Below, piece after piece: positions 1 through 4,436 of a stretch of 27,458 bases of DNA. Each line of letters opens with the position of its first letter. The first letter of the stretch is position 1. The notes beneath the pieces were generated by a model. That model was not told the DNA's origin, made no database searches, and saw only the letters and a list, made by a program, of their open reading frames with translations. The translations under genes were made by a program, and so were the position numbers. The stretch covers positions 1-27,458 of IMG/VR virus record IMGVR_UViG_3300025398_000077. One strand, given 5' to 3'. The DNA is from a virus. Taxonomy: Duplodnaviria; Caudoviricetes.

Positions 1-455
1 CAGTTTTCCGTTTCTTGGATACCTACAAACAAAACAGCCCCCGCCTCGGCACTATCCCGGTCAGAGATGGCGGACTAGCGGGCTATCAGGCGTAGAGATG
101 GTGAGTAGGGAGGGATGTGGGGCGTTCGATGTGTTGGCATTGACTAATCAATTCTCCCGCTACCGTGACTGACTGAGCTACCCGACATCACTGGCCACCC
201 GGTGCAATGAGTACTGGCGCTGCCTTGCCAGACCGGCCCGCCATCAGATTGATCGATGCTATCGACGTCGGCCATCACTAAACGAGATAACCCTAGAGTT
301 TTATCTCTAAACGTGATGCCGATCCGAACTCTATCTACTTTAGTGCTATCTCTACTAGTGATGCGCACTATCTCTAAAATGTATCGCTTTCTATGCCCTA
401 TAGGGTGTAGTATCTAGTTATGGCATTAAACGAGACAATGAAAGAGGGAAACGCC

Positions 456-812
456 ATGATTGACAAAAAAGACATTGAAACAGCTGTTAGCACCAGGCCG
501 CTGACCACAGAAGATTGGGGCCTACTCGCGGCGGCCTTGCAAGAAGCGATTAGCCAATGGGAATATGACAACGTAAAGCTAAACGATTACAAAACTAGTG
601 CAGCTAGTGCCGCGTACCGTACCTTAGCCAAAATACATGCCGCGCTAGTTATGGTTGAATGTGTGCGCTGTGACATCATCGAAACAGTAACGCTAGGTGA
701 CGCCATCGCGCGGGGCTATGACGCCTTAGAGGGTAGCTATGTCTGCCTTAGTTGCATCGAATACGAATTGGCAGAACTTGAGCAACTTTTTATTGATGAA
801 GAGGGTAACTAA
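456..812 (+). CDS. hypothetical early protein (two CxxC motifs, acidic C-terminus)
   Basis: ORF 420..812; ATG at 456 follows the GAAAGAGGG RBS at 440-448; CVRC and CLSC motifs. Confidence 0.7.
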   Translation: MIDKKDIETAVSTRPLTTEDWGLLAAALQEAISQWEYDNVKLNDYKTSAASAAYRTLAKIHAALVMVECVRCDIIETVTLGDAIARGYDALEGSYVCLSCIEYELAELEQLFIDEEGN

Positions 813-1015
813 TGGCTCGCGAGACATGTCAAGGATGTTGGCACCCGGCGCCGCGCGGCACCAGACTAGGCACCTGGTCCGGACTGGCAGATTTCGACGC
901 CACGCCCGCCCGCCCGCGCCGGTTCGCTAACTGGCGCCTATGTGTTCGATGCGCCCGTGACTTAGGCGTAACTCTCAAGTACGCCGCCCCGATCGTTGGG
1001 ATGCCGCAAAAATAA
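812..1015 (+). CDS. hypothetical small Cys-containing protein
   Basis: TAATG overlap with the upstream stop; CQGC...CVRC motifs. Confidence 0.6.
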   Translation: MARETCQGCWHPAPRGTRLGTWSGLADFDATPARPRRFANWRLCVRCARDLGVTLKYAAPIVGMPQK

Positions 1016-1027
1016 AAGAAACTGGCA

Positions 1028-1080
1028 CCTAGTAGCGGTTAAAGGCCGCGAGCGGGGTTCAATCCCCCGGACTAGGACTA
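1028..1080 (+). ncRNA. tRNA-like element 1 (no anticodon arm)
   Basis: CCTAGT/ACTAGG outer stem; GCGG-ttaaagg-CCGC hairpin; T-arm CGGGG-TTCAATC-CCCCG; ACTA tail. Confidence 0.7.
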
Positions 1081-1160
1081 CTTGCAATAGGCGGGAGTAT
1101 CGCCTATAGTAAGTAATGAGATGCGGCTGGAGGAGCCGCCTAAATGAAAGAGGAAGAACA

Positions 1161-1328
1161 GTGCAGACATTTAAACTAACCATAAGGCTAGGCAATGCTG
1201 AGATGCAAGACGGCCAAGACATTAGCGACGTGTTCGACGACGTCGCCGCCGACCTGAGCGCGGGAAGAACTCGCGGTTGTGTTAAAGATGTGAACGGTAA
1301 CACTGTTGGAGAATGGAGCCTACTCTAA
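1161..1328 (+). CDS. hypothetical protein (55 aa)
   Basis: GTG at 1161 after GAAAGAGG RBS (1146-1153); in frame with ORF 1116..1328. Confidence 0.75.
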   Translation: MQTFKLTIRLGNAEMQDGQDISDVFDDVAADLSAGRTRGCVKDVNGNTVGEWSLL

Positions 1329-1828
1329 TGGTCAAGACTTATACCCTGGTGCGCATTGACGCGGCGAGCATCACCAAGTCCGGCCGCGAGCTATTCGCCA
1401 AGATGCCCCAAGACATCCAAGACGACGACACGGAGGGCCGAGTCGTTAAGATTCTCTCCCTAATGGCGCGTAATGGCGCTAATGCATGGCGAGCGATGGA
1501 GAACGGGAGCGGAGCTAGTCCGCGGGCCGATCTCTACTGCCGTCGCGCCTGGAGCGTTGAAGGTGACGCGCGAGCGGCCGAGTTCGCTAAAGCTGATAAG
1601 GCTAATGACGAATGGGTAAAGCATTGGGAGCGGGTCGAACGGGGTTGCGAGAAGCGCCTAGACGCGTTAGCCGCGCTACTGTCGGACATTACTGGCCACT
1701 CCTGGAGGATCGACACGAGTGGCGGCGGTATGGGTGACGTACTGGTAATCCCGGCGACGCTGACGGGAGGCCGTGACAACACGACTACTTACCACACTAA
1801 CGAGCGCGCGATTTGGTTAAACGGCTGA
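1328..1828 (+). CDS. hypothetical protein
   Basis: TAATG coupling at 1326-1330; long ORF. Confidence 0.75.
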   Translation: MVKTYTLVRIDAASITKSGRELFAKMPQDIQDDDTEGRVVKILSLMARNGANAWRAMENGSGASPRADLYCRRAWSVEGDARAAEFAKADKANDEWVKHWERVERGCEKRLDALAALLSDITGHSWRIDTSGGGMGDVLVIPATLTGGRDNTTTYHTNERAIWLNG

Positions 1829-2001
1829 TGGAAGCGCGGCACCCGTTCTATACAGTCCTAATGGTCATTGTGTCGTTCATTGCGGCGCTACTCATTGCCA
1901 ATAAGGTCCCATTGTCTCACCCGCATTTAAGAACACTGACATTCTGGGCCATTTACGGAGTATTGAGTTTCACGGCCTACTTTATTCTAGAGAATAACTA
2001 A
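1828..2001 (+). CDS. small two-TM membrane protein
   Basis: TGATG coupling at 1826-1830; two hydrophobic segments. Confidence 0.7.
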   Translation: MEARHPFYTVLMVIVSFIAALLIANKVPLSHPHLRTLTFWAIYGVLSFTAYFILENN

Positions 2002-2006
2002 AGGTA

Positions 2007-2058
2007 TCTGGGCGGCCTGGTGGCCCGTTGCGCGGTTCGATCCCGCGGCTTGGAGCGA
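2007..2058 (+). ncRNA. tRNA-like element 2 (no anticodon arm)
   Basis: TCTGGGC/GCTTGGA 7-bp stem with G-U pairs; GGCC-tggt-GGCC hairpin; T-arm CGCGG-TTCGATC-CCGCG; GCGA tail. Confidence 0.7.
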
Positions 2059-2118
2059 TTAGCACCCGTGCTAATAAGTAAGTGAGAGACACTTGCGACT
2101 AATGAAAGAGGAATAAAT

Positions 2119-2730
2119 ATGTTGTCGATTACCCTGAGCGCCGCGACGTTCATAGACCTCGCAAGCGCGGGAGCGTTTGCAAGCACCGATAAGGCCCGCC
2201 CGTTGTTAACCGGCGTGCTACTGGTCCCGACTGGTGGAATCGTTAAGGCCATTGCGACCGACTCATATAAACTGGTGACGATTACTCGCGAGCTGGTCGA
2301 GCTGACCGGAGACGCCGCGCCTATCCTGGTGCCTGCTGACGTACTCGCGAAGGCCGCGAAAGATGCCGCTAAGTCTCGCGTCAATGTCGAGATCGTGGCC
2401 GACCCCAAGGCCGGTTCTTTCACTATCGCAAGCATGTCCGGAGCCTGGACTTATGGCGGCCGACTGGTCGAAGGTAATTACCCTGACGTAGAGACGCTGA
2501 TCCCCGCCGCTAATGGCATTACGTGTCCTGAAGGTGAGAATGTAGCCTTTAATGTGTTCTTCCTGGCTGACGTGACCAAGGTGGCGCCATGGTCAACCCT
2601 GAAGGGGCGCGAGAAGAACGGGACTGACGCGGCCATGCGCATTACGGCCCTGAATGACCGTAACCGGCCCATTCGCATTGAGTCGCGAGACGGCCAGACT
2701 ATCGTGCTGGTGATGCCCGTTCGCGTGTAG
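2119..2730 (+). CDS. DNA polymerase III beta sliding clamp-like protein, truncated (about two domains)
   Basis: DnaN-like motifs RPLLTGVLL, ATDSYKL, GNYPDVETLIP, AFNxxFLAD and C-terminal VLVMPVRV; only 203 aa. Confidence 0.8.
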   Translation: MLSITLSAATFIDLASAGAFASTDKARPLLTGVLLVPTGGIVKAIATDSYKLVTITRELVELTGDAAPILVPADVLAKAAKDAAKSRVNVEIVADPKAGSFTIASMSGAWTYGGRLVEGNYPDVETLIPAANGITCPEGENVAFNVFFLADVTKVAPWSTLKGREKNGTDAAMRITALNDRNRPIRIESRDGQTIVLVMPVRV

Positions 2731-2739
2731 CACCGGGTA

Positions 2740-2791
2740 GCTGGTGGCCGAGCGGCGGCGTAACTAGGTTCGATCCCTGGCACTAGCACTA
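2740..2791 (+). ncRNA. tRNA-like element 3 (no anticodon arm)
   Basis: GCTGGTG/CACTAGC 7-bp stem; GCCG-agcgg-CGGC hairpin; T-arm CTAGG-TTCGATC-CCTGG; ACTA tail. Confidence 0.75.
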
Positions 2792-2833
2792 CGTCGAGAG
2801 ACGTTACACAAGAGACAACGAAAGAGAGAGACA

Positions 2834-3448
2834 ATGACTAACCAACTAAGAAGCGATGGCGACACACTAGAACTAGAGGATGGCCGCGTGCTGAGATTGC
2901 GCGTTACTGCTGACGACTGGACGCTAGACCAAGATGGCGACTGGTTCGGTCGAGTGGGATGGTGGACCAAGGACGAGCGCCCAGACTGGTGCGATGGTAG
3001 CGCGGAGATTCTGGACCGCGACGGAGCGACTCGCCTATGGTGGATGCCGCCGACTGATGCCAAGAGCGATGACGTGCTGAAGCGTAACCTACGCGCCGAG
3101 ATTAAGGAGATTCTGGCCTATGGTTACTCCACGTATACGCTTGAAGTGTGCGAGGGCCGTGACGCCTACGGGCAGCTCATTGTCCGAGACTCCGAGAGTA
3201 TCGGCGGCGTAGCGCCATTGTGGGATGGTAGCGACGTCGATGACTTGGTGGACAACTTGCGCCTAAACCTTAATGTGGAGACTAGTCTCGTCGGCCACGA
3301 TACTGACGGTACGGCCTGGATGACGGTACGCGCCTATGTGGAAGTAGAGGTGATGGCCGAGGACTCCGAGGACGCGTTGATGTACGCCCGCCTAGCGATG
3401 CCAGACTATGACGTCGACTCGTTCACTTATGAAGTGATCCGCCGCTAA
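2834..3448 (+). CDS. hypothetical acidic protein
   Basis: 204-aa ORF, D/E-rich, purine-rich RBS upstream. Confidence 0.8.
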   Translation: MTNQLRSDGDTLELEDGRVLRLRVTADDWTLDQDGDWFGRVGWWTKDERPDWCDGSAEILDRDGATRLWWMPPTDAKSDDVLKRNLRAEIKEILAYGYSTYTLEVCEGRDAYGQLIVRDSESIGGVAPLWDGSDVDDLVDNLRLNLNVETSLVGHDTDGTAWMTVRAYVEVEVMAEDSEDALMYARLAMPDYDVDSFTYEVIRR

Positions 3449-3454
3449 CGATTA

Positions 3455-3504
3455 CCCGGTGCGGGATGGCCGCCATGGTAGGTTCGATTCCTACGCCGGG
3501 ACTA
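3455..3504 (+). ncRNA. tRNA-like element 4 (no anticodon arm)
   Basis: CCCGGT/GCCGGG stem; GCGG-gatgg-CCGC hairpin; T-arm GTAGG-TTCGATT-CCTAC; ACTA tail. Confidence 0.75.
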
Positions 3505-3535
3505 CTCTAAATGAGTAACTAAAAAAGGAGATGAA

Positions 3536-3724
3536 GTGAAACAGCTTGACAACGTAATCGGCCGCATAGGTACGATGCAGGAGAACGGCCTAGTGTTTAA
3601 GGTCAGTATTAAAGAACGTAAGAACGCCTACGGTAATGAGCGCTACCTAGTGACACCCGTGTCCGGGTACGGTCAGACCTGGGTTAATGCCGCTCGCGTA
3701 CGCGTACTGGAAGTAATAGAGTGA
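3536..3724 (+). CDS. hypothetical small beta-rich protein
   Basis: GTG start after AAGGAG RBS. Confidence 0.75.
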   Translation: MKQLDNVIGRIGTMQENGLVFKVSIKERKNAYGNERYLVTPVSGYGQTWVNAARVRVLEVIE

Positions 3725-3867
3725 TCGACTGGACCGAGCTGGACTGTTACGCCTACCGGGAAGGAGCGCGACCGGAGGATGAGCCGGAGTTCGTCGAGGC
3801 CTACTACGCGCTGGACTTAGAACTTGAAGCGGATGTGTTAGGAGACGTGACTCCCGACTCCAAGTAG
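3721..3867 (+). CDS. small highly acidic protein (48 aa)
   Basis: GTGA overlap with upstream stop; manual translation MIDWTELDCY...DVTPDSK, 15 D/E. Confidence 0.6.
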   Translation: MIDWTELDCYAYREGARPEDEPEFVEAYYALDLELEADVLGDVTPDSK

Positions 3868-3905
3868 ATGTGTTGTGAAACGCATCCCAGAGAATTACTA
3901 CAATT

Positions 3906-3951
3906 AAAAAAACACTAAGGCCCGCCGGTAATTCGGTGGGTCTTAGTGTTT
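3906..3951. terminator. intrinsic terminator, probably bidirectional, between convergent blocks
   Basis: AACACTAAGGCCCGCCG-gtaatt-CGGTGGGTCTTAGTGTT hairpin with an A-run on the left and TTT on the right. Confidence 0.8.
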
Positions 3952-3954
3952 ATG

Positions 3955-3965
3955 TGGTACACTTA
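3955..3965 (+). promoter_or_regulatory. extended -10 promoter (TG-G-TACACT)
   Basis: TGGTACACTTA; the identical 11-mer is on the - strand at 4826-4836 upstream of ssb. Confidence 0.6.
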
Positions 3966-3969
3966 GTTT

Positions 3970-4051
3970 GCTGGTCCGGGGGTAGGACTTCTCCCCCTGT
4001 AATGATTCGACTTGTCCCCCTCTTTCCAAGTGCGAGTCCCCCCGGATTGGC
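3970..4051 (+). ncRNA. candidate small RNA with C/U-rich anti-SD loop
   Basis: Terminal stem GCTGGTCCGGGGG/CCCCCGGATTGGC with G-U pairs favouring the + strand; inner ACTTG-tccccctctttc-CAAGT hairpin; starts ~7 nt after an extended -10. Confidence 0.55.
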
Positions 4052-4055
4052 CTCC

Positions 4056-4436
4056 CTAGATAAGCCGTGAGCGCTTTCGGTATCGAGCTACGCGCACCTT
4101 AGATGCCGCGTTATAGGCGTCAATGCAGGGCTGGCAGAACTGGTGTGCTGGGTCTTTGAGACGTCGCCTACGATGCCAGGCGTGACCGGCCTCCGTGCCA
4201 TGCTCCGGAGACTTGCGATTAGGTGGCTCGTATCCGAGCGATACAGCGACGATGCGTAATTCTGCATACGACAAACCGCCCCACACTCCCCACGCTTCCT
4301 GATGTTCGAGCGCCCAATGCAGGCAATCAGTCTTGATGGGGCAGGTAGCGCAGATCTCGCTTGCCTGTTGTGTGAGGCGGTCGTCGAAGAAGAGGTCAGT
4401 AAGCCCGATACAACGAGCCTTTGACCACTCAGTCAA
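4056..4436 (-). CDS. whiB: WhiB family transcriptional regulator with C-terminal HGT...CxxC module
   Basis: C..LFF..CxxCP....C..WAL...GVWGG signature. Confidence 0.9.
   Translation of the reverse strand: MTEWSKARCIGLTDLFFDDRLTQQASEICATCPIKTDCLHWALEHQEAWGVWGGLSYAELRIVAVSLGYEPPNRKSPEHGTEAGHAWHRRRRLKDPAHQFCQPCIDAYNAASKVRVARYRKRSRLI

Follow-up and report, generated by a model that had tools for sequence, protein, structure and literature searches.

A conserved non-coding RNA of ~82 nt, predicted to fold into a three-way junction, is encoded on the plus strand (3970..4051) between the presumed early gene block and the whiB operon of this phage, and the loop of its P3 arm and the ribosome binding site (RBS) tag of the early genes change jointly from phage to phage. 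Fold statistics, covariance-model matches in relatives and covariation argue for a conserved non-coding RNA gene rather than a chance hairpin, and for a real, as yet unclassified phage RNA. We propose that it is probably a trans-acting small RNA which pairs over the phage-specific tag at the early Shine-Dalgarno (SD) sequences and blocks ribosome loading.

The window analyzed here is the whole virus record of 27,458 nt, with a completeness estimate of 72%. It encodes two WhiB proteins, two SSBs, a beta-clamp-like domain as well as tail and lysis genes, a gene content that points to an actinobacterial host; a host and prophage search with WhiB yielded only distant matches in bacterial genomes and no assignment. 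A plus-strand block of small genes, mostly without known family (456-3868), faces a long minus-strand operon ending with whiB at 4056. Since its genes are small, have separate leaders and run in the opposite orientation, this block presumably comprises early genes and will be referred to as such; ArdA is present in the corresponding early block of a relative. The RNA element sits in the gap between the two, with the WhiB-family gene at the end of the convergent middle operon (4056..4436, minus strand) 4 nt from the RNA 3′ end, and relatives show the same whiB/RNA arrangement. A terminator-like hairpin (3905..3951, arms 3910-3927 and 3934-3951), which precedes some RNA copies but not every one, has G-U pairs suiting the plus strand and a U-run on the minus strand, and may be bidirectional. 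The whiB transcript of the window would run antisense through the element and could titrate the RNA. Searches for tyrosine integrase, serine recombinase, HTH_3 repressor and ParA (PF00589, PF07508, PF01381 and PF13614) gave no match in five records per family, four or five of which were at least 90% complete. As judged by these recognised repressor and integrase families, which unrecognised repressors could have escaped, the RNA-bearing phages look lytic, which makes a function in the lytic cycle more probable than one in the immunity of lysogens.

The RNA is closed by the 13-bp stem P1 (3970..3982 paired with 4039..4051, plus strand), beyond which lies a pyrimidine-rich tail lacking a U-tract. 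P1 encloses the hairpin P2 (3983..3999; 3983-3986 paired with 3996-3999, loop 3987-3995), the motif UAAU-GA at the junction (4000..4005), consisting of the linker J2/3 (UAAU, 4000-4003) and the first P3 pairs, and the P3 arm (4004..4038; 4004-4014 paired with 4027-4038, bulged G at 4032). P3 presents the loop TCCCCCTCTTTC (4015..4026), the predicted seed against the early RBS tag, which was ~90% or more unpaired in the predicted ensemble. Folding of the plus strand yielded −35.4 kcal/mol and a z of −2.81, with none of 200 shuffles as good, compared to a z of −0.80 for the minus strand. The first-pass annotation, made from the sequence of the window, had placed the −10 element TG-G-TACACT at 3955-3963, a long stem at 3970-3982/4039-4051, an inner hairpin ACTTG/CAAGT and an exposed loop at 4015-4026, all of which proved correct; the arms of the inner hairpin lie at 4010-4014 and 4027-4031. 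Its stem and inner hairpin were borne out, but helix P2 had been overlooked and the fold is a three-way junction. The second C-rich tract described at 3989-3998 is indeed present but partly paired, because it overlaps the P2 hairpin.

An extended −10 promoter motif, TG-n-TAnnnT (here TG-G-TACACT, 3955..3963, plus strand), predicts a transcription start near position 3970, where P1 begins. In 23 out of 23 distinct copies of the RNA the end of such a motif is located 3-8 nt upstream of the model start, compared to a background of 0.4%; a conserved −35 was not seen by eye upstream of it. The plus strand had been assigned earlier from G-U pairs, and this argument stands, whereas folding energy alone leaves the strand open across the family, as 13 of the 23 copies give a better fold when taken as the reverse complement. 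It is thus because of the promoter and the conserved U-G pairs, not the folding energy, that we regard the plus strand as functional. As no U-tract follows P1, the RNA 3′ end may be generated by trimming or at a U-less terminator.

WhiB relatives collected from viral and metagenome contigs were used as entry to the family. A covariance model built from 11 copies matched 19 of 86 and 30 of 66 sources, and the RNA was found in 48 of the 103 loci with a close WhiB match; several of the 55 loci without it stop within 200 nt of the whiB stop codon. The 48 include many duplicates as well as the record of the window itself (L190), and 23 distinct sequences remained. All copies lie antisense directly after the whiB stop, the one of L146 ~300 nt further. 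Across 22 distinct rows 94.6% of cells were paired, and 12 of 18 pairs showed two-sided changes. The covariation score was 0.518 compared to 0.167 for shuffled alignments (0/500 as high) and at most 0.12 with slid partners, obtained on an alignment fitted to a model that already held 15 of these pairs. Two-sided changes occurred in two of the four inner P1 pairs, which are 100% paired in the 22 rows, in three of the four P2 pairs and in seven of the ten P3 pairs counted; the closing pair of P2 is U-G in 18 of the 22 rows and U-A in one. The junction is invariant among copies while both loops vary: the UAAU-GA columns were invariant in 11/11 aligned copies, and the motif was present in every row inspected. 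The P1 bulge is variable. In a WhiB tree with 33 rows the presence of the RNA requires three changes. Many relatives lack the RNA, including the complete genome G005; four other records carry one copy each.

No Rfam family was detected at the window element, where only weak, unrelated matches were obtained, or in seven relatives, where a single chance-level match (speF) overlapped the L215 copy. An exact 16-nt loop scan of viral contigs resulted in 14 matches, none in the context of the RNA, and among the matches listed for two degenerate pattern scans there were no members beyond the WhiB-derived ones. One candidate (L408, 18 bits) was not counted as a member after inspection. Cultured phages in GenBank gave no meaningful match to the RNA, and a search with model R1 through 151 genomes belonging to a single actinobacterial class gave no match, which is a weak result as the search had no positive control. 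The literature search found no title or abstract describing the RNA; it may be among the unannotated candidates of the IMG/VR structured-RNA survey (PMC10690425), whose alignments lay outside the search.

RNA-less relatives contain long rod hairpins with pyrimidine loops, some with a P3-like tip (L268:7669-7730 in G005; L135, L138-L141, L245, L033 and L129, within ~1 kb after whiB; L027). The loop of L027 is almost identical to the L015 loop, and the L245 loop matches an RBS located on the opposite strand over 10 nt, compared to just 6-7 nt for the other hairpins. Possibly, these hairpins represent a simplified variant of the RNA. In the clade of loci L129-L144 and L221-L250, the whiB stop is immediately followed by a near-consensus TTGACA...TATAAT promoter in the same direction and by small genes with canonical AAGGAGG sites, which take the place occupied by the RNA in the other clade. 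In the distant relative L146 (3284-3500) the RNA promoter stands back to back with the early block, and several short repeats lie upstream of the RNA −10.

In the window, GAAAGAGG occurs five times compared to 0.82 times expected, a count reached in 0/100 shuffles; the sites are the plus-strand RBSs at 440, 1146 and 2104, the P3 loop itself and 9189 on the minus strand. Predicted targets of the loop, all on the plus strand, are the RBSs of gene 456 (440..448, 9-nt match, −14.8 kcal/mol with the loop alone), gene 812 (799..805, 7 nt, −12.3), gene 1161 (1146..1153, 8 nt, −11.6), the beta-clamp-like gene 2119 (2104..2111, 8 nt, −11.5) and gene 2834 (2820..2826, 7 nt, −8.8). The match at 799-805 is new, and the other four confirm those reported in the first-pass annotation; gene 812 has a homologous ORF in L021. 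The three best loop matches in the window are early leaders, and the matches end 6-7 nt 5′ of the start codon, over the SD. The seeds are short (7-9 nt), and when G-U is allowed the loop pairs as well (−13.7 kcal/mol) with two of the 22 middle or late starts as with early ones. Cassette 3536, the last one of the early block, has AAGGAG as a canonical RBS, and its pairing with the loop is poor (−5.7).

Comparison between phages gave good evidence that the loop follows the tag. For 18 representatives the P3 loop was scored against the 22-nt stretch preceding each ATG or GTG start, using ORFs of 40 aa or longer located upstream on the strand of the RNA, and the values of the three best ORFs were averaged. 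The longest Watson-Crick run was 7.00 for a phage's own early starts compared to 6.00 across phages (permutation p = 1 × 10−5), and duplex energy also favoured the own over other early starts (p = 0.012). Middle-gene starts showed no significant own-phage excess (p = 0.15 and 0.39). In a rerun on RBS windows the centred score was 0.91 (p = 5 × 10−5), compared to a maximum of 0.59 for 100 shuffled loop sets and −0.09 for antisense windows (p = 0.82). Four control windows off the RBS gave a small own-phage excess (0.21-0.26, p 0.02-0.05), and part of the signal is therefore compositional. Restricting the test to one phage per lineage left p at or below 0.0008 in 32/32 subsets; with one phage per loop class the median p was 0.0037 (range 0.0003-0.12), staying below 0.05 in 97% of 144 subsets. 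Among eight disjoint phage pairs, picked using the WhiB tree and including three that are not resolved sisters there, the own loop was favoured in seven, and with G-U allowed six were positive, one was negative and one tied. Loop/RBS covariation across related phages, named as a check in the first-pass annotation, was thus found.

Individual phages illustrate the range. L018 combines the loop UUUAUCUUUC with four GAAAGAU(AA) leaders, L202 has two 10-nt and L028 two 8-nt loop matches, and in the complete genome G001 the two best matches (13 and 12 nt) both lie in the early block. Three of the 18 phages (L021, L215 and L146) had no run of at least 7 in the main test; L021 has a longer match with one G-U, and the early block of L146 is divergent and was thus scored on the wrong strand, its first gene having a 7-nt match. 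L194, which carries the window's loop, came 11th among the 18 when scored on its own region, a region that has DNA in common with L203. When leaders were compared with both the loop and the 16S tail, the early ones matched the loop more closely (7.0 versus 6.5 for the tail) and the middle ones the tail (6.6 versus 5.9 for the loop), using a tail reference identical in 12/12 actinobacterial loci. The loops of L019, L026 and L200 have 7 nt in common with the 16S tail and hence discriminate little.

Some further features were observed in the relatives. The early blocks of G003 (L274:14259-16231), G004 (L265:10296-12490) and G005 (L268:8199-10099) contain a class-II glutamine amidotransferase gene neighbouring a larger gene, which resembles an amidoligase gene in G004 and G005; one of the genome's best loop matches falls on a leader of this block in both G003 and G004. 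The structural region of G005 (L267:885-12356) clusters collagen-repeat proteins, a sulfotransferase, an APS kinase and an Asp/Asn beta-hydroxylase, which suggests modified tail fibres. In the 65-kb record of G002 (L270-L273) part of the structural region is apparently repeated, with similar ORF sizes recurring, and the record may be a partial concatemer.

Promoter motif, covarying fold, loop-tag complementarity and the concerted variation of loop and tag are direct results of the analysis, and the mechanism that most probably underlies them is the following. The RNA would be transcribed from a housekeeping-type promoter and would accumulate after infection. Its P3 loop would then pair in the cell over the SD of several early leaders and block 30S binding, and the early module would be shut off as one set. 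The phage-specific part of the tag would spare most middle and late genes, and ribosomes would still read the early tag because ~5 nt of it (GAAAG-like) fit the 16S tail, the remainder being phage-specific. The anti-SD small RNA postulated in the first-pass annotation is thereby strengthened in its promoter, fold and loop/RBS covariation, while repression is what we infer from them.

Covariation cannot give the sign of the regulation, and it would be equally expected if the loop paired with the tags to aid translation, with the junction recruiting ribosomes or a factor. Sequence conservation centred on the junction instead of the loop would suit such an activator or tether, as would the deviation of the early tags from a canonical SD and the canonical AAGGAGG leaders found right after whiB in RNA-less relatives. 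However, the loop-leader duplexes cover the SD itself and end 0-10 nt before the start codon, a position in which a duplex would clash with the 30S subunit; moreover, the early genes would have to be translated before the RNA could accumulate. We consider activation unlikely and favour repression. It is similarly improbable that the RNA represents a generic anti-SD decoy, aimed mainly at host mRNAs in the manner of 6C, with the match to phage leaders as a by-product. The loops do share 4-7 nt with the actinobacterial 16S tail, and 6C RNA is described as binding many mRNAs via C-rich loops without chaperones (PMC6486639). Nevertheless, a host-directed loop should not track the tag of its own phage, as the loops do here without tracking the middle genes, and loops such as that of L018 are poor anti-SDs.

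A functional minus strand, on which the 3′ end of the whiB operon would display a loop identical to the early RBSs as a decoy for a leader-binding protein, appears quite unlikely. Identity would account for the covariation as well as complementarity does, the energies of the reverse complements mentioned above fit it, and the U-run of the window terminator on the minus strand implies that whiB transcripts would cover the element. Against it stand the plus-strand promoter at a fixed distance in every distinct copy and the conserved U-G pairs (the P2 closing pair, and in P3 6/21 beside U-A), which would turn into C-A mismatches on the minus strand; the poor z of the minus strand in the window points in the same direction. 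There is little reason to favour a guide for mRNA cutting or processing either, in which the loop would find the leader and the junction bring a nuclease. The invariant junction and the small hairpin of many early leaders, some with a T-arm element, would fit, but no partner protein was identified, and repression by occlusion requires no extra part.

Many cassette leaders carry a small hairpin ~30-40 nt ahead of the start codon, followed by an A-rich segment and then the RBS tag (e.g., hairpins at 1125-1141, 2076-2090 and 2790-2803 of the window; also in L015, L016, L018, L202, L021 and L028), and near-identical leaders recur before unrelated genes within one phage. The P2 loop showed an own-phage excess in the region −45..−15 (p = 0.0017) and in a second test upstream of the RBS (p = 0.017), with striking cases in L016, L018, L202, L028 and L146. 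Against leader hairpin loops p was 0.10, and in 11 held-out phages p was 0.69. A two-point, C4-like recognition involving P2 is thus suggestive in five phages but failed the held-out test, and with it the idea that the second C-rich tract is a targeting loop.

Four mini tRNA-like elements on the plus strand of the window (1029-1081, 2003-2058, 2730-2790 and 3455-3505), each with a closing stem, a small hairpin and a T-arm but no anticodon arm, lie just before early leaders and nowhere else in the window. Single T-arm elements were seen in L194, L016, L018, L201 and L021 and a similar T-loop in L146; they are possibly processing signals. Y RNAs are marked by a conserved bulged-C Ro site and the partner Ro60, tRNA mimics by a T-arm. 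That the RNA, whose 5′ start GCUGGU we take to be Y RNA-like, is a partner of these elements, as had been supposed, or itself a tRNA or Y RNA mimic is largely refuted, since 12 of the 19 relatives with the RNA have no T-arm element in their early region, neither the P3 nor the P2 loop pairs with the four elements beyond shuffles (8/8 tests), the RNA has no T-loop and no CCA end, ARAGORN finds nothing, the P1 bulge is not conserved and no TROVE/Ro gene was detected in five records.

If repression as proposed holds true, a single 80-nt RNA would shut off a whole gene set via an address written into the SD sequence, which would represent a novel way for a phage to time its genes and possibly to exclude other phages, as well as a compact orthogonal translational switch for actinobacteria. 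More tentatively, tag and RNA could form an RNA-coded lock between self and non-self, with a private tag in all early RBSs and one RNA silencing it. The RNA would time the phage's own cycle and block incoming phages with the same tag, while loop and tag would diverge to escape; rapid joint change of both is what escape from exclusion would produce. Such a lock, which we consider conceivable but doubtful, would amount to RNA-based immunity that needs no repressor protein, and it would explain how start-associated sequences are read. The family amounts to a set of natural compensatory mutants, with about a dozen loop variants, many with a matching RBS tag, and the model can therefore be tested with reporters in an actinobacterium without the need for phage culture.

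Among known systems, the C4 antisense RNA of P1 and P7 is similar in that both RNAs have ~77-82 nt, three stems and a loop complementary to the target RBS. C4 is described as a trans-acting RNA whose loop covers the RBS and whose specificity shifts between related phages (PMC5320573, PMC12197685). It is cut from a precursor by RNase P and has a CCACC tail and a second seed in the junction. Nevertheless, no match to its covariance model (RF01695) was obtained at E ≤ 10, model R1 did not match P1 c4, and the junction of P1 c4 differs from the one found here. C4 shares its precursor with the target operon, whereas the RNA presented here has its own promoter abutting P1 in 23/23 copies and lacks a CCA end; C4 represses one operon, whereas this RNA matches several dispersed upstream leaders, up to 3.5 kb away; and C4 belongs to a temperate phage with repressor and antirepressor, whereas no integrase, HTH_3 or ParA was found here in the five records searched per family. 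Membership in the C4 family was rejected on these grounds.

6C is a host RNA of Actinobacteria with two conserved C-run loops. By contrast, the loops of the phage RNA vary, some lacking a C run, and it is one variable loop that follows the phage's own leaders. The 6C loops are reported to pair with purine-rich mRNA sites independently of chaperones (PMC6486639). RF01066 matched 0/5 records at E ≤ 10, a weak test as the control also gave 0/14 genomes at the cut-off, and 6C membership was rejected.

Phage small RNAs that steer their own lytic programme in trans are barely characterized. In T4, the nuclease RegB and RegA are described as silencing early mRNAs at the SD/start region, easing the early-to-middle switch (PMC3014915); the job we propose for the RNA would be the same, but in T4 it is done by proteins, and according to that 2010 review T4 had yielded no trans-acting regulatory RNA with a functional characterization. 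Non-coding RNA candidates of lytic phages are presented in PMC10914365 without such a mechanism. The closest parallel to the tag itself appears to be found in Cluster K mycobacteriophages, whose SAS/ESAS are described as phage-specific RBS tags that recur at non-structural genes lying behind wide gaps, in many cases preceded by an inverted repeat, and for which a 2011 report left open an RNA or a protein binder (PMC3203893). The leader repeats before unrelated genes observed here are much like the extended start-associated sequences. The SAS differs in sequence from the tag described here, and in the present phages the tag comes with a candidate RNA partner that covaries with it.
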